From positions 32,001 to 96,000 of the IMG/VR virus record IMGVR_UViG_3300045391_006990: DNA of 64,000 nt; one strand, given 5' to 3'. The translations under genes and the position numbers were made by a program. The DNA is from a virus. Below, piece after piece: positions 11,430 through 63,140 of the stretch (position 1 is its first letter; each line of letters begins with the position of its first letter). The notes beneath the pieces were generated by a model. It had not been told where the DNA came from. It ran no database searches and worked only from the letters and a program-made list of their open reading frames with translations.

Positions 11430-11614
11430 GCTACGAGTCTACCAACACCTGCATCCCGTAAATCGGAACGTTCTGCACCTTGACGTGCGTTTCGATGGTG
11501 ACCCCTTCGGCTGCCCAGCTATCGGCGTGCTGCTCCACCGCAGAGAGCTCGACCGAGCACTTGCGCCCGCCTGGGTACACCGCGAAGTATTCCACCGTGC
11601 GGGACAGGATGAAG

Positions 11615-12945: not shown

Positions 12946-12946
12946 G

Positions 12947-13228: not shown

Positions 13229-13665
13229 CAGGTCTCGTCCTCGATGGGGTCCGGTGTAGCGCTAGTTGCTAACACATCTTCCATTTTGCTGCTCAAAACA
13301 TCCCAATACCAGCGCACAGCCATTCGTACCTGACCTGCACTGAAGCTGATCTCGTAGCGCTTCTTCTCCGCCACGTCTTGCACGTAGGGGTTTAGCCGAA
13401 GTTGGCTTTCGATGACCTCTCCCAGCACTCTGATGAATCTAACGGACTTAGCAACTACAGCCTCCGCCTTCTTGGCACGAGAGTCAGCTTCATCCGCACG
13501 CGTGCGCTCTGCGGCAAGGCCTTCCTCGTAATCCTTCTCACGAGAGGCAGCCGCCCCCGGCGTAGTAATACTACTCACATAGGCGTTGAACTCAGTGTTC
13601 GCCTGCGTGTTGCTGCGAAGCACCTGCAACAAGGCTGGGTAGTTGCTCAGCTGAGGCTTCGCCAT
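13228..13665 (-). CDS. Hypothetical protein
   Basis: Tightly packed ORF with a coiled-coil segment. Confidence 0.6.
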   Translation of the reverse strand: MAKPQLSNYPALLQVLRSNTQANTEFNAYVSSITTPGAAASREKDYEEGLAAERTRADEADSRAKKAEAVVAKSVRFIRVLGEVIESQLRLNPYVQDVAEKKRYEISFSAGQVRMAVRWYWDVLSSKMEDVLATSATPDPIEDET

Positions 13666-13668
13666 GAC

Positions 13669-13821
13669 CTATCGGTTTTCTTCATCGTCGGCCTTATTCC
13701 TCTCGTACTTCTGTTTTGAGTTGAGGTAGCCAGCGATGATCACGAGCACAATCATCCCACCGATGACAGCTAAGAACAGCAGTGCGAAGGCACGCTGCAA
13801 CCACAACAGGAATTCCCACAT
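13669..13821 (-). CDS. Small single-TM membrane protein, 50 aa (below the track cutoff)
   Basis: MWEFLLWLQRAFALLFLAVIGGMIVLVIIAGYLNSK..., with a GGAG SD. Confidence 0.55.
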   Translation of the reverse strand: MWEFLLWLQRAFALLFLAVIGGMIVLVIIAGYLNSKQKYERNKADDEENR

Positions 13822-13832
13822 TACAACTCCGA

Positions 13833-13867
13833 GGGGCTAAGCAAGATGCCCGTAACGGGCGTCTTGC
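13833..13867 (-). terminator. Hairpin terminator with TTAGCCCC tail
   Basis: GCAAGACGCCC-gttac-GGGCATCTTGC directly after the nucleotidase stop. Confidence 0.6.
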
Positions 13868-13870
13868 AAT

Positions 13871-14482
13871 TCACCTGGCTGCTTTCATCAGCTTTGCCAA
13901 GCCTTCCACAACAGCGTAGACCATGCCCCAGCTGGCGAGGCCGAAGACATCGCGTGGGGCCATGCGCATGTTCTGCGGTGTAATCCACAAAATCGCACGA
14001 CCACGCGGATGCTCGGCCTGCCACTGCACGACGTGATCTGGTTTGTCGTCGCACAAGAAGTCACCATCTATCGCATGCTTCTCGGCAGTGCTGACTACCT
14101 TCTTTCCCAACTCTTCACCGAAGTACTTCTGCAGCCAGTGCATGCGATCGTAGCCCCAGGTAGGACTCGTCTTGAGAGGCGAGGTCACGAAGAGCACGTC
14201 GGCAATCTCCATGATCTTCCTCACACCATCGACGGCACCTGGCAACGGCGCCAGATTCTGTGCGAAGCCGGGTTGGTTGATAAGCATGTAGACCTCGTCG
14301 TCTTCCTCCTCGGTGAGTCCGAGTGACTTCGATAGGTCCCAGTCCGTGAAGACATGGTCGGGCTTCAACTGGCGAACGCCGCTAGCATTGACGGCAGCGA
14401 TGAAGCCTTGCTTGTAGTTGGCCAAAACATCGTCGACATCACACAAGAACCTCGGCCGGTTTCTAAAAGGTGATGTCGCCAT
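13871..14482 (-). CDS. 5'(3')-deoxyribonucleotidase (NT5C-type HAD)
   Basis: CDVDDVLA (motif I), VTSP (motif II), K and LCDDKP (motif IV). GGAG SD before MATSPF. Confidence 0.85.
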   Translation of the reverse strand: MATSPFRNRPRFLCDVDDVLANYKQGFIAAVNASGVRQLKPDHVFTDWDLSKSLGLTEEEDDEVYMLINQPGFAQNLAPLPGAVDGVRKIMEIADVLFVTSPLKTSPTWGYDRMHWLQKYFGEELGKKVVSTAEKHAIDGDFLCDDKPDHVVQWQAEHPRGRAILWITPQNMRMAPRDVFGLASWGMVYAVVEGLAKLMKAAR

Positions 14483-14738
14483 CGTCTCCGCCTTCACCAT
14501 CTTCTCCTTCTTTCCGTTTAACCACCGGAAGCTTACTGCCTGGCGGTGGGTAGTCATCCGAGTACGGATTCAATGTGATGAACACTTCATCGTTCCAGTG
14601 AAGAACGATGCCGGGGTTCAGTTTGATGTTGAGCTGACCGAACTCGTTCTCGAACGCCACGCCCGCTTGAGCTCGATCCTTGGTGTTCTTCTTGTCAGTG
14701 ATCTTCAGCCAGTACTTGGGTCGGTTGCCTTTGGCCAT
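14463..14738 (-). CDS. Small protein with an SSB-like acidic C-terminal tail (putative ssDNA-binding)
   Basis: Core AGVAFENEFGQLNIKLN; C-terminus GGDDGDITF resembles the SSB-Ct DDDIPF. Confidence 0.5.
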   Translation of the reverse strand: MAKGNRPKYWLKITDKKNTKDRAQAGVAFENEFGQLNIKLNPGIVLHWNDEVFITLNPYSDDYPPPGSKLPVVKRKEGEDGEGGDDGDITF

Positions 14739-16513
14739 CAGCCATCCTCAGCAAAGAAGATGGGACTGATTTTCCACCCGTCGATGAGCTCGAGCGAACG
14801 CAGCTTACCTAGGCCGTTGGCTACGCTGCTGCTCGTAGGGCTGTACCCAGCGTGCTCGGCGACGTACTCCTTGGAGATGGAGTCGTACTTGCCGTGCGCG
14901 TCGTAGAAGACCTGCAGCATCTCACGTGAAGCCTTGTCGAGCTTGCTCTTCCACCACTCGAGAAGACCTGGCCCGGTTGGGAGCGTCTCGGTGGCAGGGT
15001 ACAGCGAAGCACCTTTGCTCGTGATGGCGATGGCGTCACCAGGGCCTTCTGCAAGGCCTTGTGACCGCAGCTGCCCCAGCGCGTTGGCCATACTGCTGCT
15101 CTTCACCGAATAGCCCGTCATGATGGCCAAGTACGTCATCGACACGGCCTTCGGGGCCACGATGGAGAGTACATTCATGATGGCGCGTGCTGGCTTGCTG
15201 AGCTTGGCTCCGTCCACCGAGGCGTTGTGCATGGTCGACGGCCCTCGCTTCCTTGCAGCTTCGTCAGCCAAGTCCTTGATCGACTTACCGGCTTGGAAGG
15301 GTGACTTCTTAGGCACTGGCGGCAGTAGTGCGTCTACGCCCTTGCCCTTTTCCGGAACTGGCTTTTGTGTGGCGGCAGCGACTGTACGCTCGTTTGACAA
15401 GACGATTTCGTGAAGCAGCATGACTTGCTTCTCGACCGTGGCCGTCACCTTACGCAGGCTCTCGATGTCCTTAGCCACGCGATCCATATTCGGCAGCTTG
15501 AGCTTCACGTCCTTGGCAGGAACAACCTTCGTTGGTTTGCGCTCGAGCTGTTTCTCAGCCAGGTGGAGGTCGGATTTGAGTTGAGCAATCTGCTTACGCA
15601 GTAGAACCGGGTTCTCCTGCGCCGCTTTGTCGATGGTCTCTTGAATGCGGCCCTTGAGCTTACCGACGTCCACGTCACGCAGCGTAGCCACCGGCCGGCC
15701 TCGCTTGCCCTTCGGCGTAGCGCCGCTATCGAAGGTCTGGCTCAGGTTGAACTTGAACCGCTTGAACTCCTTCAGCAGGTGCGGCGACCAGATCCAGGCC
15801 TCGCCGTCTTCGAGCGAGGCCAGGGACTCAAGCATGCTGTCGTCGACCGCGTGGTACTTCACCCACTCCGAGACAGCCTTGATGTCCTGAGGCCCGGTCG
15901 TGCGCAGCACGAACAAGTTCTCGACCTGCGTGAGCACGTCCTTGTTCACCACCGCCGAGCGCTGGGTGATGATGGTCATGCCCAGGCCACGAGAGCGCCC
16001 ACGCCGCACGATGTTCTCCCAAGCGCGCTTCAGGTGGAGCTCGTCCCGCATCGGCTTCTGCGGGATGTAGTCGTCCGCCTCTTCGAGGAAGAGGTGCAGC
16101 GGCTCGGTGTTGCGCTTGAACAGGCGCATCGCGAACTTGAGCAGGAAGTACTTCTTGTCGGCCTCCGTGTTGAACTCGGTGAGGTCGAGGACGCAAGCCA
16201 GGCGCTGGTCGACGATGACATCCGCCACGAGCTCGCCAGACTCCCGGGTGAGCGGCACATCGCCGTGCTTGCCGCCGAAGATGAAGACGTCGAGACCGCC
16301 GCGTTTGGAACCGTCACGGCCAGCACGCAAGCCGTACCAGGACCCGACCGGGTCGACGGCGACGAACGGGTAGCCGGCGTGGAACATCTGCTCGGCCATG
16401 AGGCGCGAAGCGTTCGTCTTGCCGGCGCCGCGGACGGCAAGAACGCCACCCGTGCTGGTGACGTAGCTAGTCGGTAGCGACAGGCTTCGCGACAGATGTA
16501 GTTGGTTGGTCAT
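14738..16513 (-). CDS. HerA/FtsK-superfamily ATPase with tandem C-terminal winged-helix-like repeats
   Basis: Walker A AVRGAGKT, Walker B LFLEEAD, RGRSRGLG and ITQR. Duplicated GYSxxSSSxANxLGxLRSxxL at the C-terminus. Confidence 0.85.
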   Translation of the reverse strand: MTNQLHLSRSLSLPTSYVTSTGGVLAVRGAGKTNASRLMAEQMFHAGYPFVAVDPVGSWYGLRAGRDGSKRGGLDVFIFGGKHGDVPLTRESGELVADVIVDQRLACVLDLTEFNTEADKKYFLLKFAMRLFKRNTEPLHLFLEEADDYIPQKPMRDELHLKRAWENIVRRGRSRGLGMTIITQRSAVVNKDVLTQVENLFVLRTTGPQDIKAVSEWVKYHAVDDSMLESLASLEDGEAWIWSPHLLKEFKRFKFNLSQTFDSGATPKGKRGRPVATLRDVDVGKLKGRIQETIDKAAQENPVLLRKQIAQLKSDLHLAEKQLERKPTKVVPAKDVKLKLPNMDRVAKDIESLRKVTATVEKQVMLLHEIVLSNERTVAAATQKPVPEKGKGVDALLPPVPKKSPFQAGKSIKDLADEAARKRGPSTMHNASVDGAKLSKPARAIMNVLSIVAPKAVSMTYLAIMTGYSVKSSSMANALGQLRSQGLAEGPGDAIAITSKGASLYPATETLPTGPGLLEWWKSKLDKASREMLQVFYDAHGKYDSISKEYVAEHAGYSPTSSSVANGLGKLRSLELIDGWKISPIFFAEDG

Positions 16514-16691
16514 TTCTATTCCATTCTGTGGGCGGGTACCCACCCAGCTTGAGCCAGCCGTCGAGGTCGTCGAACTTGTCCATCAAATCAAGAACTGCTT
16601 GCTCTTGCGCGGTCACCATCTTCTTATCGCGCAGAGGCTGAAGCTTCGTCAGCAGCTCACGTATTTCAGCCAAGGCGGTGTCCGGGTCCAT
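16467..16691 (-). CDS. Hypothetical phage protein (MDPDTAL...LDGWLKLGGYPP)
   Basis: Start overlaps the upstream stop; typical small phage ORF. Confidence 0.6.
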   Translation of the reverse strand: MDPDTALAEIRELLTKLQPLRDKKMVTAQEQAVLDLMDKFDDLDGWLKLGGYPPTEWNRNDQPTTSVAKPVATD

Positions 16692-17083
16692 TAGGCTTCG
16701 GCCATGGCAAGGGTTTGCTGCAGCGGCGCGACGAGCTTGAAGCCTTTGCACGTCTTGCCGCAGAAGCGCTTGAGTGCAATGGACGAACGGCTGCCTGTGG
16801 TCAAGCTTTCGACCAGCACCTTCTCAGCTCCGACGGCCACCACGCGCACTTGGCGCGCTTGCCCGTCATAGACGTCACGGGGGTCGAGCGACTCCCAAAT
16901 CTGGTTGACGGCGACGCCGTACATGTTCGACGTCTCGTTCGCCGGCTTGAAGCTGCGAGGTAGACCGTTAGCGCTTCTTCTTGGTGTGAACTCGGCGCGT
17001 AGCGCGCTCACCAGATTTTTCGTCGCCTCCTTGGACAAGCGAAAGCCTTCGCCCAGGCGGCGTAGTTTGATCACGTTTCCCAT
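16691..17083 (-). CDS. Hypothetical protein
   Basis: GAGG SD before MGNVIKL. Confidence 0.6.
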   Translation of the reverse strand: MGNVIKLRRLGEGFRLSKEATKNLVSALRAEFTPRRSANGLPRSFKPANETSNMYGVAVNQIWESLDPRDVYDGQARQVRVVAVGAEKVLVESLTTGSRSSIALKRFCGKTCKGFKLVAPLQQTLAMAEA

Positions 17084-51500: not shown

Positions 51501-51527
51501 CACTTCTTGGTCGGTGTAGTTGCTCAT
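48513..51527 (-). CDS. Putative virion structural protein, 1004 aa
   Basis: Helical termini around a beta-rich core. Shares GVxVGD..I..GxNxG repeats with the baseplate protein. Confidence 0.6.
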   Translation of the reverse strand: MSNYTDQEVQDAVEKIVRSSVRHPTGILGERKIDVSFSDIQEAAAGCFILYFNAPFYVLKLGVKRLQDALDSQAQTIASLIDAVEATDRLTTPITDISLLANARSALEELEAAVSSRDQGFSDISKVPAYRRYVQNLDGFLGATGSNIRKTGADGSATIVDTPSGARGKIPGLVRQLVDQQNELIRRVKLLAGAIDDFASLNLPRIAAQGVISRARDVLDSHYNDLAALDENSRLDNLRAVTLDLLTQRPLVTKYGAATAPSEFITTSGLATAYADTQHLAVPAVRESSSSGPYPILAANQLIRFTLDGGTPFDFPLPLSYVAELLGTLQEPFAITADSNAMRIVFGQLDTGGATFDIPLTIGTRSAQQIVTEVNAGLGASSLRMQKRFVPLRYSGPVTTTSLGGNNARFTILAGDLNALGVVVGDDLDVVAGTNAGTTWGITAVDPLGQYVDTAGVAPVVPASDDSIETGPAARALQLVDTDELGSVVQRRAIRLPRTDGVQDLTHAILGFFPGIEVRSRPVSAQAVVDNITGSTAALSAKVVFHPFEYVGSARSEPTDPTRVVLSKLVCDGLLGTGGTNIALAVAVPDSVQLGDRVVIRSSLTPTDIGVEGSINTIASGVLGVTFPVPVTDGAISIEVGPDVTFGFGDVLIISDGPNQGHYYIGEDQLVKTTASFELVIESSLPVFKDGNKSIGFNVEFGSEDVSFVSRDTTLVSAITVDNAGTSHGADYFLDPIDVGVPIKGFTKFIRFDTFPAGVTVGDLVQFYVGSYNVVDVEQEVVSIDSTLQVLELSAAVASTFSLTFDFGVPNPFGRIRIAQVANYTELKDGSTTWLGQSPQQELFFRNLARALNPIVTNANPTPSMINDATNLLEDMAASLTELGAVFDLYEAPAVEPVDVMLSTFRQKGADRAIDLLLEGQFSTFFNLNVDGVSYSGTLMSGMRDLAREDLPIRKFNRRDTAGQKLIGAQPDDKDFEFSSDDADSPMQPDIPMAPDVASPGENL

Positions 51528-51799
51528 TTGCTGGGGTCTTTCTCGAGGCTGAAGCGTGCGGTAGGCACCTTGTACTTACCAAAAACGTCTGGGTGAAATT
51601 GGTTGGGCTGCAACCCACTTTGCAGGGCATTCTCCATGTCCTGCGCCATCTCGTCCTCGTAGGCTTTGGTCTTGATGCAGCGGACGCAGCTGACCAGGGT
51701 GTGGTCGGTGGTGCTTCGCATGAACCCGCGGTCTCGAGTCGCACCACAGACCGCGGCATTGTCCCCGTGTTTGAACCTCCAATGCATCACGTGGCTCAT
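51524..51799 (-). CDS. Zn-finger + AxxMExAL motif protein
   Basis: H..CG..VSCVRC followed by DEMAQDMENAL. Confidence 0.7.
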   Translation of the reverse strand: MSHVMHWRFKHGDNAAVCGATRDRGFMRSTTDHTLVSCVRCIKTKAYEDEMAQDMENALQSGLQPNQFHPDVFGKYKVPTARFSLEKDPSK

Positions 51800-52390
51800 G
51801 TAGTGGGGTCTTTCTCAGGCATATCGATGCCGCTGAAGTATCTACGGATGGCCACGTCCAGGTCGAGGAAGGGGCCGTGATTTTCGCCCTGTTCGCCCAG
51901 CTCTTCCCACCAGACGATGATGGCGTACTCGGTGGTCTTCAGGAGGTGGCCACGCCACTCGAGGCGCCAGCCATGGGCGCGGGTGAGGTGAAGCTGCTGG
52001 TTGCGGGCGCCGATGCACCATGTAGCGGCTGCCTCGACATCGGGGAAGAGCAGGACGGTGTGCTCGACGCGTACGGCGCGCCAGGCTTTGGGCTCACCGG
52101 TCTCGGTCAGGGTGAAGACAGTTGTGCCGGGCACCAGGTCGATGATCTCCCAGTAATTGCCACGTGTGGGTTGGATGATGGCGCTCATGTACTTGCCTTT
52201 GCTGCTGCGCGTAGGAGCTCCACTTCACGGGGCGTGAAGGGGCCGTTGCCCGAGTGTTTGATGCAGGTTTCTACGGCCGTGACCAGGCTTTCCTCTTCGC
52301 CATGGACCAGGAGCTGCTTGGCCACATTGAGCTCGTGCTGTAGGAGGGAGGGGAGGGGTTGGGCAGGTGCTGTTCGCGGGCGCCGAAAAG

Positions 52391-52717
52391 TCATGTAGGG
52401 GGTGCTTTCCCTGAGCCTCGGCACCTAGCGCAGACGCCGTTGAACTGGGAGGGTATCGGACTTCTTGAGCCTGAGCCATGGCAGCTTTCGCACAGCTTGG
52501 GCTGGGTCAGGATGCGCATGACTTCTTGGTAGGTTTTGTCCTGCACAGCGAGGACGGGGTGCTCATGCTGGTCGAGGATGTAGACGATGTCGAACAGCTG
52601 CTTGGTGGTGAAGGGGGCCTTGGCTTGGAGCACGGTGGCCAGGGTGGTGAGGAAGTCGGGATGAACGCTGTTGGCTGGCGCCGAAGGTTCATTTTCTGGG
52701 TGGAGCGGGGTGCTCAT
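52391..52717 (-). CDS. Hypothetical protein with DnaJ-type CxxCxGxG repeats
   Basis: CESCHGSG...CARCRGSG. Confidence 0.55.
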   Translation of the reverse strand: MSTPLHPENEPSAPANSVHPDFLTTLATVLQAKAPFTTKQLFDIVYILDQHEHPVLAVQDKTYQEVMRILTQPKLCESCHGSGSRSPIPSQFNGVCARCRGSGKAPPT

Positions 52718-52913
52718 GTATTGGTGACTTTCGTTGGGGTCTGAGGCAGAGAGAACACGAGGGAGCCAGGCTGGATGTGCTTACCGTCGACGGCGAGCTT
52801 AGCCGAAGAAGTGAGCTCGGTGCGCAGCCTGTGTTGGAGGATGAGCCAGCTGTGGCGCTCGGTGGCGTGATTGGGGAATTTGTCGAGGGTGAAGGCAGGT
52901 AGGCGGTGCGGGA

Positions 52914-53186
52914 TCATGTTGGTCGAGCCTTCCTTGGCAGGTTCACCACTTTTTTGAGCGCGAGGGCTAGGCTGTTGTTTCGGAAAGTAGATGGCATCCT
53001 AAAATCTGTCAGCTTGGGCGCATCAGGGGTCAGAGCATCTTCCATCTTCTGAGCGATTCGGTCCTCGTGCGTGATGTTGGGTGTGAAGGGTTTCCCGTCG
53101 TAGGTGCGGCACACACCTTCGTGGCTGTGTTCCAAGTAGCAGCGTTTTTTGTAATTTGGCAGCACGAGCCTGTTCATACAACGCAT
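52914..53186 (-). CDS. C-C-H-C finger + AxxMExAL motif protein
   Basis: C...CYLEHSHEGVC followed by DRIAQKMEDAL. Confidence 0.65.
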   Translation of the reverse strand: MRCMNRLVLPNYKKRCYLEHSHEGVCRTYDGKPFTPNITHEDRIAQKMEDALTPDAPKLTDFRMPSTFRNNSLALALKKVVNLPRKARPT

Positions 53187-53190
53187 GGCT

Positions 53191-53427
53191 TCAACCTAGT
53201 TTTGGCAGCAGCGCGATGCACGCAGGGCACGAGACGTTCTCGTCGTCGAAGGTGTAGAGCGGGGTCTTGTCGGAGAGGGGCGTGCCCTTCGACCAGTCAG
53301 CTCGGTACACGCCTTCAGGCAAGCCCTCTGGCTGCGCGTAGACGTAGTACTCCTTGTTCTGACAGAGGATGGTTACGTAGGGCTGCGAGGAGCTGTGGCA
53401 GGCGTGAACGACTTGCTCGGTGTTCAT
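53191..53427 (-). CDS. Zn-finger protein of the same family, lacking the motif
   Basis: VH...ILC...VSCPAC, then ends. Confidence 0.55.
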   Translation of the reverse strand: MNTEQVVHACHSSSQPYVTILCQNKEYYVYAQPEGLPEGVYRADWSKGTPLSDKTPLYTFDDENVSCPACIALLPKLG

Positions 53428-53633
53428 GTGGTTGCTGCTTTCTGTAGTGCATGTTCCATGATTTCAGCGCGCTCGTCTCGGTACCGAGCAGTGCGCATGC
53501 AGCTCTTGCACGTCACCCAGTCGGCAAGCGAGGTCCACTGCACACGGCCTTCAGGGTCTTTGGTATTGCATACCTGCATGCGCTTACCGCAAGCTGTGGT
53601 GCGGTTCATGCCAAGGAAGAGGTGGACAGACAT
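53424..53633 (-). CDS. Zn-finger + AxxMExAL motif protein
   Basis: H..TACG..VTCKSC followed by DERAEIMEHAL. Confidence 0.7.
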   Translation of the reverse strand: MSVHLFLGMNRTTACGKRMQVCNTKDPEGRVQWTSLADWVTCKSCMRTARYRDERAEIMEHALQKAATT

Positions 53634-53908
53634 AGCTTCACGATCTTTTCGGTCAGCTCGTCGGTAAAGGCCCTGAAGCTGGCGACGGTACTGGGCGTGG
53701 TGAGCGACTCTTCCATCCGCTGGGCTTGGCACTCATCTGAGATCAGGCAGGCTTCGCAGTCCACGATGTCCAAGCTGCTAGAGAGGCGCGCGTCGTCGGG
53801 CAATTCACGTACCAGCTTGCCGCAGCCTGTACGAAACGGCATGTGCTGCTTGGGCGTGGGGAGCCAGTAATGAATCACGATGAGCTGGTCGTTTTCGTCG
53901 ACGTTCAT
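53606..53908 (-). CDS. Zn-finger + AxxMExAL motif protein
   Basis: HY..TGCG..VDCEAC followed by ECQAQRMEESL. Confidence 0.7.
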   Translation of the reverse strand: MNVDENDQLIVIHYWLPTPKQHMPFRTGCGKLVRELPDDARLSSSLDIVDCEACLISDECQAQRMEESLTTPSTVASFRAFTDELTEKIVKLCLSTSSLA

Positions 53909-54369
53909 GTGGTGCCTATCAGTAGCTGCCGTTGTGCGGATGGATTCCACTTCATGTGCTGCCCGGGCGGGAGGGTGAACTGCAGGATGATGAAGCCGTC
54001 AGCGCGCTTGACCATGTACTTGCGGTTCGCAAAGGACTCGTTGTACACGGTGAACTCTTCGATGCGCTCGCCAGCCGCCCACACGCGGTACACGCTTCCC
54101 GTCTCATCGACCAGCGTGGCAGCAGGGGCTTGGAGCGCTTCCTCCATCGCCTGTGCCTTACACTCGTCGGACCTGAGGCAGGCGGGGCAGTCCACTTCCT
54201 TGAGCTTGCTGGTGAGCGAAGCGGGCTGCCGTAAGTCGTAGAAGCCAAGGCCGCAGGCTGTGTGCACGGGCCCACGCCTTTCGACGTAGTAGTGGTGCGC
54301 GGTAGGGAGCACACGAGTAGTGAATGAGCGGGCTGCCTCCGCAATCTTTTCTTTTAGCTCAGCGCTCAT
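53905..54369 (-). CDS. Zn-finger + AxxMExAL motif protein with a C-terminal domain
   Basis: HY..TACG..VDCPAC followed by ECKAQAMEEAL. Confidence 0.7.
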   Translation of the reverse strand: MSAELKEKIAEAARSFTTRVLPTAHHYYVERRGPVHTACGLGFYDLRQPASLTSKLKEVDCPACLRSDECKAQAMEEALQAPAATLVDETGSVYRVWAAGERIEEFTVYNESFANRKYMVKRADGFIILQFTLPPGQHMKWNPSAQRQLLIGTT

Positions 54370-54595
54370 ACATGTCCGTACCGAACATCGACACGACGCC
54401 CTCGGTTGCTTGCCGGATGTTCGATTTGATGAGGGCACGCTCCATGCCCGTGGCCAGGTACTCGTCCGAGCACAGGCAGCCAGGGCACGTTACTTCCTTG
54501 AGGCTGTTGGTGCCGCATACGCCGGGTTCAGTGCCCAGGGGTTGGCCGCAGGCTGGGATGTAGTTGGCACCGCGGGTGACATAGCAGACGGGCAT
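54359..54595 (-). CDS. Zn-finger + AxxMExAL motif protein
   Basis: CY..PACG..VTCPGC followed by EYLATGMERAL; GGAGG SD. Confidence 0.7.
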   Translation of the reverse strand: MPVCYVTRGANYIPACGQPLGTEPGVCGTNSLKEVTCPGCLCSDEYLATGMERALIKSNIRQATEGVVSMFGTDMYER

Positions 54596-54612
54596 GCGTA
54601 CCTCCTGCAGCA

Positions 54613-54930
54613 TTACGTAATCTCCAGCTTCTTCAGGTACTCGGCAGAGACCATGAGCTTGCTGAATTCCTTCTCGAGAAGTTCATTTGGATACAGTACA
54701 TTCATGAAATCACCTGCCTCCACACCACGGTTGACGAAGTCAGGCTCGCGCAGCGAATCCTCCATGGATTGAGCCAAGGCATCGAGGTACTGGGCGGACT
54801 CGAGGCAGCTCTCGCAGTTGATGCGCTCGACCCAGCGCGTGGCGTACATATCGTGGGTGATGCGCACGCCACATCCCGTACGCTTGCTGTCACCGTTCTT
54901 GGCGAAGTGGGAGGTGCCCTCGAACTTCAT
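54613..54930 (-). CDS. Zn-finger + AxxMExAL motif protein
   Basis: HF..TGCG..INCESC followed by DALAQSMEDSL. Confidence 0.7.
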   Translation of the reverse strand: MKFEGTSHFAKNGDSKRTGCGVRITHDMYATRWVERINCESCLESAQYLDALAQSMEDSLREPDFVNRGVEAGDFMNVLYPNELLEKEFSKLMVSAEYLKKLEIT

Positions 54931-55283
54931 GGACCACCACCTTCCGCTGTGATCGCCAGCTTGCGTACGACACCATCCGAGCTCATCACGCAGATTTCGT
55001 CTGTAGTCGTGTCCATCCACAGAAAGCAACCGCTGACAGGTGCAGTGGTTGGGGCGCCCGGCAGCCAGGTATTCGAGCTCGCGGGCAGCGGGATGGTAGG
55101 CGCGCTCTTGCCGGAGATGGTGAACACATCCGTGCGCAGCGCATCTTCCATGGACTGCGCGACGCCTTCGAGGCACGTGACACAATCCACCTCGTAGGGT
55201 GCGCTGCTGCAGAAGTCAGCCTTCACCTGACTCAAGCCGCAGAAGGTGCGCGCTCTACCTGGAGGGACGTAGCAAGTAATCAT
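54927..55283 (-). CDS. Zn-finger + AxxMExAL motif protein with a tail-fibre-tip-like C-terminus
   Basis: CY..TFCG..VDCVTC followed by EGVAQSMEDAL. Confidence 0.7.
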   Translation of the reverse strand: MITCYVPPGRARTFCGLSQVKADFCSSAPYEVDCVTCLEGVAQSMEDALRTDVFTISGKSAPTIPLPASSNTWLPGAPTTAPVSGCFLWMDTTTDEICVMSSDGVVRKLAITAEGGGP

Positions 55284-55289
55284 GGGCTC

Positions 55290-55673
55290 CTAGTAGGGTT
55301 GGAAGTCGCGCTTACGCTTGGGTGCACTCTTCAGCGTCTTGAAGTAGGTCTCGAGCGTGAGTCGATACGCATCGAGTTGTTCGAGCCCTTCGAAGTACCA
55401 CCAGTAGGCCTTGTACTCGTAGAGCACCCAGTAGGGCGGGTTCTTGTGCTCGTAGCTGACCATGGTCTGCGTCTTGGTGCGCATGCCATCAGGAAATGGG
55501 GTGAACGAGAGCACGGCAATGGACATGGCCTTGGTACGCCACACGCGGTACTGCTGGTTGGCCAGAACGGCGCCGTGCGTGCCGCGTGTGGTGTAAGGCT
55601 TGCCTTTGCCGAAGGTCAGCGCGTCCTCCATGGCTTGCGCGATTTCATCTTCGGTCAGCTCTTCCATGGTCAA
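55290..55673 (-). CDS. AxxMExAL motif protein
   Basis: N-terminal EDEIAQAMEDAL. Confidence 0.7.
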   Translation of the reverse strand: MTMEELTEDEIAQAMEDALTFGKGKPYTTRGTHGAVLANQQYRVWRTKAMSIAVLSFTPFPDGMRTKTQTMVSYEHKNPPYWVLYEYKAYWWYFEGLEQLDAYRLTLETYFKTLKSAPKRKRDFQPY

Positions 55674-55918
55674 TCCCAGTAGTAGAGTACAAGCTCGCTG
55701 GTGTGGCGTCCTTCGTGACCGAATGGGAGCTCGCAGAAGACGGTCTGCCCTTTGTTCGTGAAGTGCATGTGCTTGCAGCGCAAGTCACGGGCTGGAGTGC
55801 CTCCGAGTGCCTGCTCGAGGCGGTCTAGGGCTAGCTCTTCGTTGATCTTACGAGCCCTGCGCTCCTCGAGCTTCTTGCGCCTCCGCGCCTCGCGCTTGAA
55901 GCTGCGCGCGGTAGCCAT
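55670..55918 (-). CDS. Basic N-terminus + LDRLExAL variant motif + C-C-H-H finger
   Basis: ELALDRLEQAL...C...CELPFGHEGRH. Confidence 0.65.
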   Translation of the reverse strand: MATARSFKREARRRKKLEERRARKINEELALDRLEQALGGTPARDLRCKHMHFTNKGQTVFCELPFGHEGRHTSELVLYYWD

Positions 55919-56263
55919 CTACACCCCGAGCTTGAGCCTGGCTTCTTTGATGGACTCGAGCGAGATCCACGCAGGCTTACGGTACCGTGCAGTGGCAATG
56001 TCATTGCAGAACTTATGCCAAGCCTCGGTCAAGATCTTGTGCTCCGTACGTTGCTCCAAGCTGAGCCACACGGTGCCGCGGCCTTCGGCTTGCAGCGTCT
56101 CGAGGTCGAAGCGCCCTCTTGGTGCGATGAAGCGCGAGTTCTCGTAGTTGTACTCCACCCACTTGCGCCCAATCTTGGTGATCACGTACTCGGTAGGCTT
56201 GCCACGGTCGAAGTCGTGCTCGACGAAGACATGCTGCCCTACCTTCAGGTTGTGCTTGTTCAT
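55919..56263 (-). CDS. Hypothetical beta-barrel-like phage protein
   Basis: LKVGQ...ITKIGRKW; ATGA overlap. Confidence 0.6.
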   Translation of the reverse strand: MNKHNLKVGQHVFVEHDFDRGKPTEYVITKIGRKWVEYNYENSRFIAPRGRFDLETLQAEGRGTVWLSLEQRTEHKILTEAWHKFCNDIATARYRKPAWISLESIKEARLKLGV

Positions 56264-56637
56264 GATGCCCACTCGAAGGCGATGCCTTCACGCTCACACA
56301 TTTCAGAGAACATTCGGCGCACGGCGATACATTGCCGGTCACCAGGTTTGAGTGCCTTGCGGCACACGTCGGGGCGCTTTTCGTAGATGGAGCAACTCAC
56401 TTGGCTACCGATGGAGCCACGCAGCGAGACGCACCTGCAGTCCTCACAGCCTTTGAGCGGGCCCGTCTTGTTGACCGTTGGCCGTGTACGTATCTCGCTG
56501 CGAATGACGTGCAGCTTCACGTAACGTTTGCCCAGAAGCTCTTCATCTTTGGGCGTGAGGTTGACGTAGGTGTCCTCCCAGGTAAGGGAGGTACAACAGA
56601 TGCCGCACTTGCGGCAGTCAGGCTTGCGCATGATCAC
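56260..56637 (-). CDS. YkgJ-family CxxCxxCC cysteine-cluster protein
   Basis: DCRKCGICC...CVSL.G.IG...CSIYEKRPDVCR...C. Confidence 0.8.
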   Translation of the reverse strand: MIMRKPDCRKCGICCTSLTWEDTYVNLTPKDEELLGKRYVKLHVIRSEIRTRPTVNKTGPLKGCEDCRCVSLRGSIGSQVSCSIYEKRPDVCRKALKPGDRQCIAVRRMFSEMCEREGIAFEWAS

Positions 56638-57093
56638 TCCAAGTGGTGAGGCCCCACGTGCTTGTAGCGCCTGAGTTCCTGCGGGGTAGCGCCAGTGAGG
56701 CGGCGCTTGGTCGCACCGGCGCTGCGCTCGCTGCGTGCCTTGTCACGGCGCCATTCTTCAGCCTCGGCTTCGGTAGCCACGTACTGCGTGGAGCCCCACG
56801 AAGGGATGTTGATTGTCCACACGGCCACTTCATGAGGGTCGTGCTGCCTTTCAGGATCGAGGTCTGCGTCTTCCTTGACCAAACCTTCGGCGATTTCGAT
56901 GAGAGCTACCTCGCCGTCGGCAAAGGGCTCCACAGTGACGCTGGTCGAGCTGAACTTGGGCGCGCGCCAGCGCGGACAGTCTGCACCGTCCACACGGCTC
57001 ATGTACGGATGAAAGACAGGGAAGGGCGGCGTGATGCCGTCATGCTTGCGCGCCCAGTTGAGCAGGATGCGCACAGCACGGATGAGCTTCTGT

Positions 57094-57333
57094 TCATGGG
57101 GGTTCATACGAGGGATCACTCCAGGAAATGACGGCCAGCGATGGTGTGACGCACATGTGATCAGTGCCTCGGTGGCCGCGCTTGAGGGTGCAGCGGTGCC
57201 CTTCGGATACCGACTGGCACTGGGCGGTGGCGATGGCCGCTTCGAGTCTGTCGAGCGGCGCTTCGTACTTCAGGTATTGCTGACGAGCGTGGCGCTTCTT
57301 GCGAAGCTCACGCTTCTGTTTTCGGTTTGCCAG
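57094..57333 (-). CDS. Paralog of 55670..55918 with a probable CTG start (not in the ORF track), 79 aa
   Basis: GGAGG 9 nt before the CTG. ANRKQKRELRKKRH...EAPLDRLEAAI...C...CTLKRGHRG..H. No in-frame ATG/GTG/TTG back to the TAG at 57430. Confidence 0.6.
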   Translation of the reverse strand: MANRKQKRELRKKRHARQQYLKYEAPLDRLEAAIATAQCQSVSEGHRCTLKRGHRGTDHMCVTPSLAVISWSDPSYEPP

Positions 57334-57698
57334 TTGAGATGACCTCCAACTCCTGTTCTCCGGCGAACTTGTGCTGAAGCAGCGTTGGGTTGTGGTCAGG
57401 TACGTGCTGAAGATCTTCAGGCAGGTCTTCTATAGCTAGGGTAGGCTTCCACACGAAGATGAGCGTATCGGCCTGTGCGTTGTAGTGGGTCTCTACGAGT
57501 TCGCAAAGGTACAGCTTGTCCCTGTTGTCCCTCACCACCGGAGACTCGATCTTGTACCCAATCTTCTTCGGGTCGGGGTAGGCGTAGTTGCCGTCCTTGC
57601 TGTGCGCACACGACCAGTCGCCGAGTGCCATCTGCACTTCGGCTATTGAGCGGGGCAGCGTCGTAACGATGTAGTTCATTCTCCAAGACATGGGATCC

Positions 57699-57950
57699 TC
57701 ACACGGGTTTGGTTTCGCTCACGATGACGGTGGGTGGGAAAAGGTCGAGCAGGTTGTACTTCTCAGCCAAGGTGTAGCTGTTTGCCTTTCGAAACTTCTG
57801 CTCTTCGCGAGCTCGTTTAGCTCGGATGTCACGCATGGCGTCCTTCAAGCTGAGCGGACCACGCAACGATTCTTCCATGCTCTGCGCCGCACGCGCTTCA
57901 TCAACTACTTGCTGTAGTTCTACTGGGAGCTGTGGTTGCTTAGCAGTCAT
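57699..57950 (-). CDS. AxxMExAL motif protein
   Basis: ARAAQSMEESL. Confidence 0.65.
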   Translation of the reverse strand: MTAKQPQLPVELQQVVDEARAAQSMEESLRGPLSLKDAMRDIRAKRAREEQKFRKANSYTLAEKYNLLDLFPPTVIVSETKPV

Positions 57951-58359
57951 CGATAGGGGCGAACAAGCTGGCGCGAGGCTCTGGTCTGAAGCGGTATTTG
58001 GGCTCTAACCCAATCGACTCCCGCAGCCTATTGAATTCCATGATGAGGTCGTCGAGTGCTTTCTCGGAGTCGAAGTTGGGGTCATCCAAGAAGCGGTAGA
58101 TGGGGAACGGCAGGAACAGCTGCAGCCACGGTCGCGTCTCGTTGAGGCGCAGGTACAGCGCATCGTCGTACATGTTCATGATGCGCGCGATGTCGGCTGC
58201 GTTGAAGAAGAAATAGGTTGGGCGTTGCCAATCACCCAGGTACTGCGCTGTCCACGTACGAGCCTGTGCCTGCCCTTTATCCCACGCATAGAAGGGCACC
58301 AGCACCTTCTCCATGCGGTCTGCCAGCAGATCCTCGAATGGAAAGATGAGCTGGTACAT
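57940..58359 (-). CDS. AxxMExAL motif protein
   Basis: DLLADRMEKVL. Confidence 0.65.
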   Translation of the reverse strand: MYQLIFPFEDLLADRMEKVLVPFYAWDKGQAQARTWTAQYLGDWQRPTYFFFNAADIARIMNMYDDALYLRLNETRPWLQLFLPFPIYRFLDDPNFDSEKALDDLIMEFNRLRESIGLEPKYRFRPEPRASLFAPIDDC

Positions 58360-58688
58360 CAGTACGGCCTCAGCTTTTTGGGAGCAACTTCACGCCGACT
58401 ACGCGCGTCGTCCTCGCGCTCGAGACCAGGGAAGAACCACAAGTCTAGCTCGACTTCCATGTAGTCCCAGCCGTTTGTCTTTTCTCGGCGTACCTCAACC
58501 TCCACCATGGCCGTGTTCGGGTAACGAAAGCGAACCTCTACAGTCGACCCGAACAGACCCTTGTGCTTGCTCTGGACTTTGTACTCGCTCCAGTCTGTCC
58601 AGCCACCGAGCAGCGCCAGCTCCATGCGCTCGGCCATCAAGTCTTCAACGTCTTCGATGATGGCAGCGAGGTTGTCGAGCTTCTTCAA
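58359..58688 (-). CDS. AxxMExAL motif protein
   Basis: DLMAERMELAL. Confidence 0.65.
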   Translation of the reverse strand: MKKLDNLAAIIEDVEDLMAERMELALLGGWTDWSEYKVQSKHKGLFGSTVEVRFRYPNTAMVEVEVRREKTNGWDYMEVELDLWFFPGLEREDDARSRREVAPKKLRPY

Positions 58689-59173
58689 AATGCACTCATC
58701 CTGATCTTGGTTGGTTTGCCATTTGCCAGCCTGCCCTCGTACGCCTCACGCACCAGCTTTTCCTTCTCGATGCCGGGGAAGAACCATTGGTGGCGTCGTG
58801 GGCTGTACAGGCGTGAGTACTCGTCGTTGCCGGTGCCCCAAATGAGCGGGTCCTGTTCAGGCGGTTTCTTCTTGGGCACGTCGACCTTGAAGAAGCGCAC
58901 CTCGATGCAAGGATTACCTGTGGCGTAGGTTCGAAAGCGCACCGCACACTTCTGCCCAACGCGGGCTAGTCTCTCCTCTCCAAAATCCACGTGGTGGTCT
59001 GAGCGCAGCGTGTACACGTGCCAACCGTTGGTGAAGAGCGATTCGGTGTGTGCCTCGGGCTTGATGATGCTGTCACGCACCATCTTGTGTAGGTAAGCCC
59101 TCAGCCTTTGGTTGTCCTTCTTCGTGACCGCCCAGCCTGGCGGGAGTCGCTTTGTCTTACGGCTTTGTGCCAC
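58685..59173 (-). CDS. Hypothetical protein; its C-terminal domain resembles that of 58359..58688
   Basis: Both share VRFR....N..[IV]EV...WFFPG[IL]E[KR]E. Confidence 0.6.
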   Translation of the reverse strand: MAQSRKTKRLPPGWAVTKKDNQRLRAYLHKMVRDSIIKPEAHTESLFTNGWHVYTLRSDHHVDFGEERLARVGQKCAVRFRTYATGNPCIEVRFFKVDVPKKKPPEQDPLIWGTGNDEYSRLYSPRRHQWFFPGIEKEKLVREAYEGRLANGKPTKIRMSAF

Positions 59174-59454
59174 CTCTTCATACCCTCCTTGACGCGTACT
59201 GATCTTTCCTCGAGCGTGGCGATCAGCCTGTCGGCAGTAGCTGCGGACACGCTGTCGAGCATAAGTCGACCTCCCGAAGTGGAAGCAGCCGTAGCTGTGC
59301 CAGTGCGTAGGCTCACGTCATCCCCAATAGAACGTTGCGATGGTGGAGGCTCGGTGACGGTCAGCGCATCCTCCATAGCCTGCGCTATAGCAGCCTTCTT
59401 GTGGTACCAAGGTTGGTACTTGCGCACGTGGAGCTTCTTCTTGCGCTTACTCAA
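59101..59454 (-). CDS. Basic N-terminus + AxxMExAL motif protein
   Basis: AAIAQAMEDAL. Confidence 0.6.
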   Translation of the reverse strand: MSKRKKKLHVRKYQPWYHKKAAIAQAMEDALTVTEPPPSQRSIGDDVSLRTGTATAASTSGGRLMLDSVSAATADRLIATLEERSVRVKEGMKRWHKAVRQSDSRQAGRSRRRTTKG

Positions 59455-59863
59455 TTGAGATCGAAACCTTTTTCAGCTCGATTATTGGGGTAATGCCAGC
59501 GGAGATGTGTAGGTGCTGCTTGAGCTCCGCTTCAAGCAGTACGCTACCGTCTAGGATTAGTTGAACCTTCGACAAGATCGCTGACCCCCCTATACACGCA
59601 GGGAAGCAGATGGGTCTTACGGTACTGAGAAGTCCGTGGGCGACAGCCCATTGATTCGTGTCACGCGCGAGGGAAACCCGCGCATAACCAGCGTAGGTCA
59701 CCTCATTCCCGTCAATATCCAGAAGGCTTGCTGTCATCCCTGTAGTAGGAGTCAGCGCAGCTTCCATGCGTGCGGCAGCTAAATCACACTCACGCTTTTG
59801 CTTAAGTAACGACTCAACCAACTTCCACTGGTGCTTGGCCCACCGAACCGAATTCCTCTTCAT
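59447..59863 (-). CDS. AxxMExAL motif fused to a phage tail-protein-like domain
   Basis: DLAAARMEAAL followed by NEVTYAGYARVSLAR...W...FPACIGGS...ISAGITP. Confidence 0.65.
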   Translation of the reverse strand: MKRNSVRWAKHQWKLVESLLKQKRECDLAAARMEAALTPTTGMTASLLDIDGNEVTYAGYARVSLARDTNQWAVAHGLLSTVRPICFPACIGGSAILSKVQLILDGSVLLEAELKQHLHISAGITPIIELKKVSISIE

Positions 59864-60453
59864 GGTCTGCGCAGCCGTCCTAGCCCGTAAGCCGGGCCTG
59901 TGCCATTGATCTTGCCTCCAATCAATTTAAGGGGAGGTCCGCCGTAGACTGCCGCGAATGATGCGATCTTTGCGGCGGCGCGCGCTACATCCGCGCTTAT
60001 GCCATCGGCAACCACCTTCTCGAACACCTGCTCGATGTCGTCCGGCAGCTCATCGCCGTAGCTGCTGAGCACCAAGGCCGTGTTTGCTTTGGATTCGCCA
60101 AACGCTTGCTCGAGCACGCGCCGCTCGAGCTCAGCGTAGTCCGTACGCGCCAATGGGTCGTCAACGATGACGAGCGTACCTGGACCTCCAAGCCGTTGTG
60201 GCGTCGGCAGGCCACGCGAAGCGTACCTGTGCTCCAAGGCCATATCTTGAAGCTGGGCGTAGAAGTCGTCGAGGCGTGGGATGTACTGCAAGTTCGGCTG
60301 TGATGAACCTCTGCGCCCAGTGATTGGGCCCAGAGTTTCGAGGTCGAACGCCACCGGATCGAAGCTGAGCGCCGCCTCCATTGCGTGTGCCTGCGCATCT
60401 TCGTACGCCTTGTTGCGCCGTTGATTGCGGGTAAGTCGCTTCTGCCTACGCAT
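59860..60453 (-). CDS. AxxMExAL motif fused to a patchwork of DNA polymerase A motif fragments
   Basis: DAQAHAMEAAL, VAFDLET, TGRRGSSQPNLQYIPR, DYAELERRVL and AKIASFAAVYG. Confidence 0.65.
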   Translation of the reverse strand: MRRQKRLTRNQRRNKAYEDAQAHAMEAALSFDPVAFDLETLGPITGRRGSSQPNLQYIPRLDDFYAQLQDMALEHRYASRGLPTPQRLGGPGTLVIVDDPLARTDYAELERRVLEQAFGESKANTALVLSSYGDELPDDIEQVFEKVVADGISADVARAAAKIASFAAVYGGPPLKLIGGKINGTGPAYGLGRLRRP

Positions 60454-60652
60454 TCTTCCTCCTAGCCTTCACCCGCTTGGCGTCTTCGAAGCAGGCACGA
60501 GCCTCGTCCTTGGATTTACCGGTGGCTCGCATCCAAATCTCCATCAGCGTGGACTCTCCGCTGAGTGCTTCTTCCATGTCCCGCGCTTGCTCATCAACCG
60601 AGGCGGCTCTTTGGTCCCTTGTGCTTGGGTCGGACGACAGGGGTTGTGTCAT
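60446..60652 (-). CDS. AxxMExAL motif protein
   Basis: DEQARDMEEAL; GAGG SD. Confidence 0.65.
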   Translation of the reverse strand: MTQPLSSDPSTRDQRAASVDEQARDMEEALSGESTLMEIWMRATGKSKDEARACFEDAKRVKARRKNA

Positions 60653-60955
60653 CGTTCACCTCACGTTCACCAAGAAAGGCCTTAGCACGCAGCACGGTCT
60701 CTTGCTCACCACGCGAGATCTTGGCTCCTAAGATGCTGGTGGATTCTGGCTGCAGCTCGATGATGTGTACCAGCGCCTTGATGAGACTGGGGGCTTCATC
60801 GATACGCCAAGTCTCAGCCTTGTAGGCCTTGACCGCCCGAAGCAGCTCACGCGTGGCTTTGGTGTGGATGCGTGGTGCGCCATCTTCGAGCTCATCCGCC
60901 GCAGCTAGCGCTGCACGGATCACACGCTCCTTCAGCAGATTCACGGATGCAGTAC

Positions 60956-61906
60956 TCATTTTCTTAGCTCCAGGGATTTGACGACTTCAGGGCTCAGGTA
61001 GGGGTTGCGGGCGCAAGCATCTTCGATGAGCCGCTCCATGGCCACCTCGAACTTGCCCTTGTCGTCGCGCCCCTCGGCGCCAACAACGCAGCGGTCGCGC
61101 GGATGAAGCTGCAGCTTGGTCTCAATACGCAGGAGCCTGCCTTCCGGAAAGCTCATGGAGCTCGAGCCCGTCTGATACAGGCCTTGGTAGATGTACAGGT
61201 TACCGAGGTCTTTGTTGACGCGCTCGGCATTGGCCTTCGCTGCGGCTACATCCAAGGCGCGGGCGACGCTCGTCCTGCGACGGTCGTGCTCCCAGCGGCG
61301 CAGCACCTCAGCCGGCTTCAGCTCTTGGATCTCGATGACATACGAGGCGTAGTGCACGTCGTATTCGACCGTCTCCCAGCCAGTCTTACTCACCTCAGGC
61401 TCTGGGTGCGCCACACAGAAGGGTTGGCCAGGGGCGATGCCGTTTTGTAAGGCCCACTGCCGCCATGGCTCATGCCACTCGTGGTCGTACTCGAAGCAGT
61501 CCCCGTCGCCGTAGCTGATGCCCAGCGCCTCCCGCAAATCCAAGTCGCTCAGCCACCAAGGGAACCACTTGGGCTCCTGCGACGCGGGCCTCAGCTGATT
61601 GCCCATGGCGTCCCATTCACCCTCGTCGGTATCCCACGCAGGGCCTTGCCCGATCTTCACCGGATGCAGGTCGTAGAAGTCACCCCAATACAGGCGGTAC
61701 CATTCTCGTACCAATTTGATGCCATAGAGGTTTACGGCATCGCTGTCGTAGCGCACGGGTGGGATGAGTTTGCGCAGCTTCTTGAGCGTGCGACGCGTCT
61801 TGGTTGTAGGCACCAACGCTGCTGGAGGCACGGGCTCGCTAGGCATGCCATCCCACCACAACTCTGCTTCACTCAAGCTTTGGCTTCTCCTTTCTTGCTG
61901 GCACAC
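60956..61906 (-). CDS. Hypothetical Trp-rich protein
   Basis: Long ORF in the operon. Start uncertain. Confidence 0.6.
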   Translation of the reverse strand: MCQQERRSQSLSEAELWWDGMPSEPVPPAALVPTTKTRRTLKKLRKLIPPVRYDSDAVNLYGIKLVREWYRLYWGDFYDLHPVKIGQGPAWDTDEGEWDAMGNQLRPASQEPKWFPWWLSDLDLREALGISYGDGDCFEYDHEWHEPWRQWALQNGIAPGQPFCVAHPEPEVSKTGWETVEYDVHYASYVIEIQELKPAEVLRRWEHDRRRTSVARALDVAAAKANAERVNKDLGNLYIYQGLYQTGSSSMSFPEGRLLRIETKLQLHPRDRCVVGAEGRDDKGKFEVAMERLIEDACARNPYLSPEVVKSLELRK

Positions 61907-62747
61907 GGAAGGTCACGCCCTTGATGAACGTGGGGTCGTTGGCATCGTTGGCGAACTCGATGTCCTCGGTCGAGTCTTTGCCCACGCGCGTTGTGGTCTT
62001 GGTGAAGATGCCACAGCGCCCGCACTCCCAACTCTTCTTGTGAATGAACGGGATGTCGTCGCTGAACAGGGCTTCGAGCTCAGCCTCAGTCATTGGCTGC
62101 GTGAAGTCCTTGATCACCTGCGTCTGCTCTTCACTGTCCTTGCTTTCGCTCCAGCCGTTACAGCGAGGGCAGTACATGCCTTCAGCCTTGAACGTACCAG
62201 CGATCTGCGCCTCGAACTGACTGAGGTCGGTCATGTCGTAGCGCCGTACGATTTCAGCCTTGGGCATCCTGCGTATTTGCTCGGCAGTGGTAACGAAGAT
62301 GAGCTTGGCGCGCAGGGAGGCGTAACGCACCTCGTGCTCGTTGACCAAGAAGTCGACGGTCTCACCAGCCCTTTCCGAGGCCCAGGCGCAGGCGGCATCG
62401 ATAGCGCGCTCGAGGTGCTCGTTGGCCACGGCGGTGGCGTCGAAGTCTTCGAGCTCGTCATCAGTAGGCGCATGCCCTACCGCTTGCTCGACGAGCCAAC
62501 GTGGGGCGTCGGCGAAGCCCATGAACCTAGGGCTGCTCAGAAAGCGCACTGCCCTCACGTACGACTTGCGCAAGAGCTTCGTGTACGAGTCGTCGTCCTC
62601 ACCACCCTTGGGCCTGGTGCCGATGCAGAGCGGAAAGCGCGAGCAGCCAAAGAAGCTGCCTTTGGCGCCGTGCCGCTCCATCATGGGCACGCCGCATTCA
62701 GGGCAGCGCACGTGCGGAAGCAGCACGCGCTGCTTGAACTTACCCAT
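61869..62747 (-). CDS. Protein with a topoisomerase-type C4 zinc ribbon
   Basis: CPECGVPMMERHGAKGSFFGCSRFPLC; GGAGGAG SD. Confidence 0.75.
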   Translation of the reverse strand: MGKFKQRVLLPHVRCPECGVPMMERHGAKGSFFGCSRFPLCIGTRPKGGEDDDSYTKLLRKSYVRAVRFLSSPRFMGFADAPRWLVEQAVGHAPTDDELEDFDATAVANEHLERAIDAACAWASERAGETVDFLVNEHEVRYASLRAKLIFVTTAEQIRRMPKAEIVRRYDMTDLSQFEAQIAGTFKAEGMYCPRCNGWSESKDSEEQTQVIKDFTQPMTEAELEALFSDDIPFIHKKSWECGRCGIFTKTTTRVGKDSTEDIEFANDANDPTFIKGVTFRVPARKEKPKLE

Positions 62748-62756
62748 CTCTCCTCC

Positions 62757-63140
62757 CTAGCAATCTTCGTTGACGAGCACACCGCACTCGTCGCAATGGC
62801 GGTCGAGCGCTTCCTTGGTGTTACTCCAGAGCGTCATCATGTAGCCACTCAAGTAGCTGAGCCGCGGGTAGTTGGTAGCCACTGGCTCGTTCTTGAGCGC
62901 GCTTTCCATCGCCGGGGCGATTGTGTTGATGCGATGACAACGCCAACACAGGACGCAGCCGTGACTGAAGGTGTAGCCGATGATCCACGCTGCAGTAGAA
63001 AGCACTCCGCCCCATCGAATCTCTCCACAGCCAGTGCATTCCCAGCCACTGTGGTATCGAGGGGGCGGATGTACTTCCAGGCAAGGTGCCTGGGTCTTGC
63101 AATTCGGACAGCGCTGAACCGGCTTGACTTGCCGACTCAT
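62757..63140 (-). CDS. Multi-CxxC protein carrying the AxxMExAL motif
   Basis: CPNC..CTGC..CWRC, then NTIAPAMESAL, then CDEC. Confidence 0.65.
   Translation of the reverse strand: MSRQVKPVQRCPNCKTQAPCLEVHPPPRYHSGWECTGCGEIRWGGVLSTAAWIIGYTFSHGCVLCWRCHRINTIAPAMESALKNEPVATNYPRLSYLSGYMMTLWSNTKEALDRHCDECGVLVNEDC

Follow-up and report, generated by a model that had tools for sequence, protein, structure and literature searches.

The DNA analysed here (the window, 64,000 nucleotides) covers bases 32001-96000 of a 111,271-bp IMG/VR virus contig with a CheckV completeness of 58% and a G+C content of 59.6%. The gene products of the phage include a family-A DNA polymerase, a thymidylate synthase and a sigma factor; family matches are lacking for most of its proteins, and megablast of 24 kb against GenBank phages returned no match. 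In the region of interest every plausible gene lies on the minus strand and the genes are packed tightly, with no promoter-like sites, and no terminator-like sites on the coding strand, found between 58238 and 63373. The features of three adjoining genes and of the array to which they belong are collected in Table 1.

Table 1. Coordinates (positions in the window) of the features at the locus.
Feature	Position	Strand	Content or basis
Array of small genes with the tag A..ME.[ASV]L, 17 copies	51524..63140	minus	pattern count against shuffles
117-aa gene	59101..59454	minus	N-terminal module, linker and C-terminal stretch; orthologues P0002 and in G001
Linker of the 117-aa gene, residues 32-68	59251-59361	minus	variable; Ser/Thr/Pro/Gly
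Basic N-terminus and tag AQAMEDAL of the 117-aa gene, residues 1-31	59362-59454	minus	strongly conserved
Chimeric gene, 138 aa	59447..59863	minus	N-terminal tag module and Gp80/whisker-type beta-sandwich; ORF list, start backed by P0047
Gp80-family beta-sandwich of the 138-aa gene, residues 48-138	59450..59722	minus	hhalign, family HMM, alignment A1, AF2, Foldseek
N-terminal module of the 138-aa gene, residues 1-37	59753..59863	minus	basic helix predicted at 5-20, followed by AARMEAAL
Tag AARMEAAL of the 138-aa gene, residues 30-37	59753-59776	minus	within the N-terminal module
197-aa gene	59860..60453	minus	basic N-terminus, tag AHAMEAAL and collapsed family-A DNA polymerase relic

The genes of the array share a short motif that we refer to as the tag. 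The pattern A..ME.[ASV]L occurs 17 times, always on the minus strand and between positions 51623 and 62895, while 0.11 occurrences are expected from 100 shuffles of the whole contig; the narrower pattern ME.AL is found 13 times on the same strand and over the same range. The tag is real and far above chance. Third codon positions vary both in the tag and in the acidic residues that precede it, which indicates that the constraint on the tag acts at the level of the protein. A reading of the tag as a DNA element, a promoter or a ribosome-binding site was rejected in view of these varying third positions and of the GA-rich words located about 20 nt upstream, and no DNA-level repeat long enough to serve as a recombination site was found at the tag. 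The tag lies 12-171 codons from the nearest upstream in-frame stop and is preceded by zinc-ribbon-like segments in the genes at 51-55 kb and by basic N-termini in those at 59-60.5 kb. No other ORF of the contig contains it, those for structural proteins included.

A search with a DNA pattern for the tag identified a complete relative, G001 (195,580 bp with terminal repeats), which is syntenic with our contig (104 of 155 genes with matches at about 30-85% identity) and keeps the array with 10 tags together with orthologues of the flanking genes. Comparison of the two phages reveals that the tag is not entirely fixed. The 162-aa gene at 58685-59173 of the window carries a decayed tag, EAHTESLF, while its G001 orthologue (L026 6494-6910) has a perfect AARMEAAL at the same place; tags have thus been gained or lost among orthologues, and judging from such sequences the array probably exceeds 17 members. 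The tag of the 138-aa gene and the tag of this G001 orthologue also match at 25 of 29 nucleotides, a match that we judged too short to interpret. The orthologues (L026 7448-7765 and L059 1224-1541) of the 68-aa tagged gene at 60446-60652 have A.GFERIL, where Phe takes the place of Met and Ile that of Ala, and, read at the sequence level, they show tolerated variation of the motif. Another array member, a zinc-ribbon and tag gene at 54927-55283 of the window, has a tail that ends in a LWMDTTTDEICVMSSDG stretch with no Pfam or PHROG match, which we take to resemble fibre-tip motifs.

The 138-aa gene has an ATG at 59863 that overlaps the stop codon of the upstream gene (ATGA). A public gene call (P0001, 106 aa) starts instead at the Met of the tag. 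This start was rejected, because the 32 residues upstream of it are conserved in P0047, a protein of another phage, which makes the longer ORF the real one; the variation of third codon positions upstream of all tags also disfavours it. On these comparisons the public call is probably too short. The initial annotation had recognized, after AARMEAAL, a widespread small phage tail-associated beta domain that lacks its usual N-terminus, and our analysis confirms both the domain and the missing part. Residues ~48-138 form a beta-sandwich of the Gp80/whisker type. In Pfam, PF23140 (Gp80, fibre I of podophage GP4) matches the protein over profile positions 40-115 with 15.5 bits and an E value of 0.022 (14.9 bits in the genome scan), which is below the gathering cut-off of 27 bits for this family. 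A phmmer search of 1.84 billion representatives returned 65 proteins at E<=1e-3, including 63 of the Gp80 type, mostly 110-160 aa in length and all beginning at query residues 25-56, the other two being the shorter call of the same gene (P0001) and P0047. By hhalign against an alignment of 35 canonical family members, the match reaches 99.4% with an E value of 1.8e-21 and places query residues 48-135 on columns 53-144. A HMM built from the 35 members without the query scores the ORF at 92 bits (E 1.4e-30); its alignment begins at Met33 within the tag, and HMM nodes 1-37 have no counterpart in the ORF. All of the near-invariant residues of the family are kept (L47, E54, Y57, Y60, R67, W72, F87, G93 and P126 in alignment A1). 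BFVD contains 11 phage matches at E<=1e-3, and word-indexed protein searches with the 138-aa protein and with P0047 returned only the queries themselves.

The predicted structure agrees with this assignment. The AF2 model of the 138-aa protein has a mean pLDDT of 82, exceeding 90 over most of residues 43-138; the sandwich is confident from residue 43, whereas the N-terminus is poorly defined, with pLDDT of 52-71 over the N-terminal module and a helix at 5-20. The best Foldseek match in the PDB is 8jou_a, fibre I of GP4 (prob 1.0, TM 0.58), followed by the whiskers of Bas63 (9mt4) and Sf14 (9c39), also at prob 1.0; the A1 profile, with the query included, finds 8jou_a at E 2.9e-10. The protein thus resembles GP4 gp80 (8JOU; PF23140) in its sandwich by profile, HMM and fold, in its near-invariant residues and in its length (138 versus 140 aa). 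It differs in having a basic helix and the tag in place of the canonical N-terminal helix-loop, in its sub-threshold Pfam score, and in the position of its gene, which has no rope, collar or fibre genes as neighbours. Similarly, the whiskers of Bas63 (gp5, 9MT4) and Sf14 (9C39) are small subunits that dimerise by N-terminal helices and wrap the collar 'rope', but their genes belong to structural modules, have the canonical N-terminus and carry no tag. The monomers of Bas63 whiskers, GP4 fibre I and A1002 fibres dimerise (PMC12609058, PMC13730344), in Bas63 through an interface of coiled N-terminal helices (PMC12609058), and the dimers sit bead-like on a 'rope' strand, which supplies what their incomplete sandwich lacks (PMC12609058, PMC13730344).

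In the 138-aa protein the homology to this family begins at or just after the tag, and we found no evidence for homology that runs through the tag and upstream of it: canonical Gp80 N-termini show no relation to a two-sequence N-terminal profile of the 138-aa protein and P0047 (hhalign P 0.61), and a PSSM of the canonical helix gives no signal on residues 1-47 (p 0.97). These first 47 residues instead find their relative in P0047, which shares MK(R/K)NSVRWAK... from residue 1 and 52% identity over residues ~1-50 (E 1e-13 pairwise); the phmmer match is confined to query residues 1-49, and the rest of P0047 cannot be aligned with the 138-aa protein. P0047 thereby speaks for the N-terminus as a separate module, since it shares this part and has a remainder that is not alignable. 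The identity of this remainder is less clear. It gives an hhalign probability of 0.1 against the Gp80 family, while an ESM-feature search places it near clusters containing PF23140 with a score of 0.93, which we treat as a lead only. A single-sequence AF2 model of P0047 has a pLDDT of 44, too poor for a fold search, with a helix predicted over the tag and an all-beta C-terminus. The payload of P0047 may, on these hints, be a very diverged Gp80 domain, in which case the two proteins would be an old conserved gene pair and no shuffling event would be visible here. P0047 comes from a contig of 3,961 bp, and a search of viral contigs for related loci with the 316-aa neighbour, P0047 or P0002 found no match.

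These data also bear on another explanation, that the protein is a full-length, fast-diverged Gp80 paralogue whose canonical helix has changed beyond recognition, with the tag arising in the helix-to-strand loop by convergence or by short-patch conversion. Its N-terminal segment is indeed about as long as the canonical one (47 versus ~50 residues), the helix predicted at 5-20 lies in roughly the canonical place, a few pairwise BLAST alignments run colinearly into residues 10-27, and KLVESLL falls on the canonical helix in MAFFT and in a few BLAST alignments. However, neither the profile nor the PSSM test gave a signal, and P0047, with its N-terminal module conserved and its payload not alignable, shows the opposite of what such divergence predicts. 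Furthermore, a tag would appear by chance in a given 138-aa protein with a probability of only ~7e-5. We therefore consider this explanation quite improbable. A domain-swapped member of the Gp80/fibre-I/whisker family, encoded among small accessory genes in a densely packed operon away from the fibre island, is the best explanation of the locus as a whole, and in our view a probable one.

The initial annotation also proposed that the 117-aa protein encoded at 59101..59454 carries, after its tag, a single Gly-rich tail-fibre rung. This could not be sustained. The TTG start of the gene is confirmed by orthologues that open with MSRRKKKL, the closest being P0002 with 61% identity and that of G001 having 41% (alignment A4) or 38% (BLAST). 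Invariant positions across the three phages concentrate in the N-terminal module, and the C-terminal stretch at residues 69-108 is conserved with P0002. Identity to P0002 falls to 19% at residues 32-47 and is 48% in the proposed rung at 44-68, compared with 77% and 70% in the flanks. Both orthologues have indels in the linker region, and the 37-residue linker contains 4 Gly versus 6 Thr and 6 Ser, which makes it Ser/Thr-rich rather than Gly-rich. The segment GDDVSLRTGTATAASTSGGRLMLDS has no match in Pfam, PHROG or the phage's own genome, and the best ESM atlas score is 0.82, with no family. For these reasons GDDVSLRTGTATAASTSGGRLMLDS was rejected as a tail-fibre rung, and the 117-aa gene is not derived from the virion. 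The 117-aa protein appears to be an ordinary conserved member of the array whose functional core would be the N-terminal module, and its Ser/Thr/Gly stretch is probably a flexible linker.

On the other side of the 138-aa gene, the 197-aa protein reveals a different kind of payload. It retains an ExoI-like VAFDLET, a TGRxxSSxPNLQxIP stretch and motif A-like and motif B-like stretches of a family-A DNA polymerase; Pfam DNA_pol_A matches it at E 0.0055, and PDB entry 7r0k_A aligns with it over two colinear stretches. The combination of tag and polymerase-A relic is conserved in three related phages with differing lengths, being shorter in G001 (L026 6859-7464) and in L059 (1444-1911). The open frame of the G001 relic gene overlaps the beginning of the following gene, which is read in a different frame. 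With a polymerase relic among them, recognisable payloads are not specifically structural. Apart from this relic and the 138-aa gene, the tagged payloads have no match in Pfam or PHROG, and in a tblastn search of the phage with all tagged ORFs none of these payloads had a paralogue beyond the array. The earlier suggestion that payloads downstream of the tag are recruited from structural genes thus holds for one gene, at 59447-59863, which has a virion-type domain, and not for the rest, since among the 17 tagged genes this one alone carries a payload derived from the virion, and the gene next to it carries a polymerase relic. Domain shuffling is real in this single case, without amounting to a general uptake of virion genes.

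The related suggestion that the tag is a fusion point for gene capture agrees with part of the evidence, in that detectable homology starts at or after the tag and the N-terminal module occurs elsewhere on P0047. Taken strictly, this idea implies a recent capture, in situ, of the phage's own gp80 at the tag. A canonical gp80 (G000 16117-16545, 142 aa, 62.5-62.7 bits with PF23140) is in fact present on the same contig, outside the window, and the BLASTP alignment with the 138-aa protein begins right at the end of the tag (q35-137 on s28-141, E 5e-17). However, identity over this alignment is 34%, and the beta domain is no closer to it than to foreign homologues (63.5 bits versus 64.7 and 63.9). 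Base composition differs as well: GC3 of the 138-aa gene is 0.58 (0.55 in the N-terminal module and 0.59 in the domain), compared with 0.74 in the own gp80 and a genome mean of 0.72. The 138-aa gene thereby falls below the 5th percentile of contig genes of >=100 aa, and no gene called in the array region has a lower GC3. The junction holds no long DNA repeat, and the N-terminal module is common to P0047 of another phage. In-situ capture of the own gp80 is therefore scarcely probable, and the tag as a site of capture in this genome is disfavoured. Atypical GC3 in both halves, together with the same N-terminal module in P0047, argues that the gene was probably imported whole rather than assembled here, and, judged by its sequence, it most likely arrived with its two parts already joined.

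The distribution of the Gp80-type genes adds to this picture. The own gp80 lies ~75 kb from the 138-aa gene, in a 5.6-kb island (G000:C1 about 11300-17000; loci L007 11628-15350 and L008 2117-3069) that also contains a 173-aa ORF and the gene, adjoining gp80, for a 1240-aa BNR/sortilin-repeat protein. The island, which resembles an exchangeable module for host recognition, is missing from the syntenic, complete G001. This relative, the one complete genome compared, also lacks a counterpart of the 138-aa gene, with the 117-aa orthologue directly following the short polymerase-relic gene, and it has no Gp80-family gene at all. Both Gp80-type genes, being absent from G001, are lineage-specific.

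This shared presence and absence speaks for another possibility, namely that the 138-aa protein is a second fibre or whisker subunit of the virion, whose tag-bearing N-terminus is a targeting sequence or propeptide removed on assembly, the whole array being processed or packaged via the tag. A partial precedent is the Pseudomonas podophage A1002, whose chain-like fibre is built of two divergent Gp80-fold paralogues, gp40 and gp41, the longer of which has ~30 extra N-terminal residues that lie outside the ordered fibre and are missing from the map, possibly by proteolysis (PMC13730344). In giant phages, moreover, prohead proteases cut behind the Glu of A-X-E, detaching N-terminal propeptides that are 20-254 residues long (PMC10052503). 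In line with such processing, the M-E of the tag is invariant, and the tag shares with these propeptides and with the T4 capsid-targeting sequence the character of a short N-terminal peptide on unrelated cargo with Glu at the would-be cut. The differences, however, are considerable. Both A1002 proteins are proven parts of the virion with consecutive gene numbers, whereas here the second copy lies far from the first, among small accessory genes of a tagged array. The residue three before the putative cut varies among the tags (A, S, R, K, D, I, G), so the tag does not follow the A-X-E rule, and with its position 12-171 residues into the proteins and its absence from every structural protein of the contig it shows none of the hallmarks of a capsid-targeting sequence or propeptide, namely a conserved P3, an N-terminal position and presence on head proteins. 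No protease was identified on the contig, and zinc ribbons and a polymerase relic would be odd cargo or propeptides. We consider a virion role of this kind unlikely.

On the reading as a domain-swapped protein, the incomplete beta-sandwich, which in solved phages clamps the 'rope' strand and forms chain-like fibres, is kept intact, and the canonical pairing helix has been swapped for a 37-residue module of a basic helix and an acidic amphipathic tag, of the same kind as neighbouring genes carry. Loss of the canonical helix would abolish canonical pairing and leave the strand-binding groove, so that the protein would presumably not form the canonical dimer and its beta domain could still bind an extended strand or a surface ligand. 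The tag, in turn, would direct the 138-aa protein and the other proteins of the array to a partner or destination that they have in common. For its function we favour a shared docking or address helix, although only tentatively and at rather less than even confidence. A broader version, which we hold to be doubtful, is that the tag serves as a portable helix for addressing or docking, by which a family of ~190-kb phages sends unrelated domains, such as zinc ribbons, the polymerase-A relic and, in this lineage, a fibre sandwich without its pairing helix, to one partner or compartment, the fibre domain then acting off the virion. If this were true, the tagged fibre domain could be, for example, a strand-clamping decoy, or a regulator of fibre assembly of the phage itself or of a competitor.

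Such N-terminal exchange is frequent in the family. Among 67 domain hits in the retrieved relatives, 39 have the canonical start and 25 are without it; RR-type, signal-like N-termini occur in several of these 25, and one has a CPAC segment. Twin-arginine-like signal peptides (MKRR.F..) replace the canonical helix in P0006, P0011, P0014, P0027, P0028, P0029, P0052 and P0056, which suggests, as far as these N-termini can be read, exported and off-virion uses of the Gp80-type domain.

Recognition of Gp80 and whisker subunits as 'beads on a rope' fibre units is only recent. This study indicates that the sandwich can be separated from the helix used for dimerisation and placed behind a different N-terminal module within a tagged array. 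The array as a harvester of virion genes does not hold, and the whole tagged array may be something new. Because of the tagged chimera described here and the database relatives with signal-peptide-like N-termini, we suggest that the N-terminus of the Gp80 family is an exchangeable address. The presence of the same domain with and without the tag in one genome provides a testable handle on the role of the tag.
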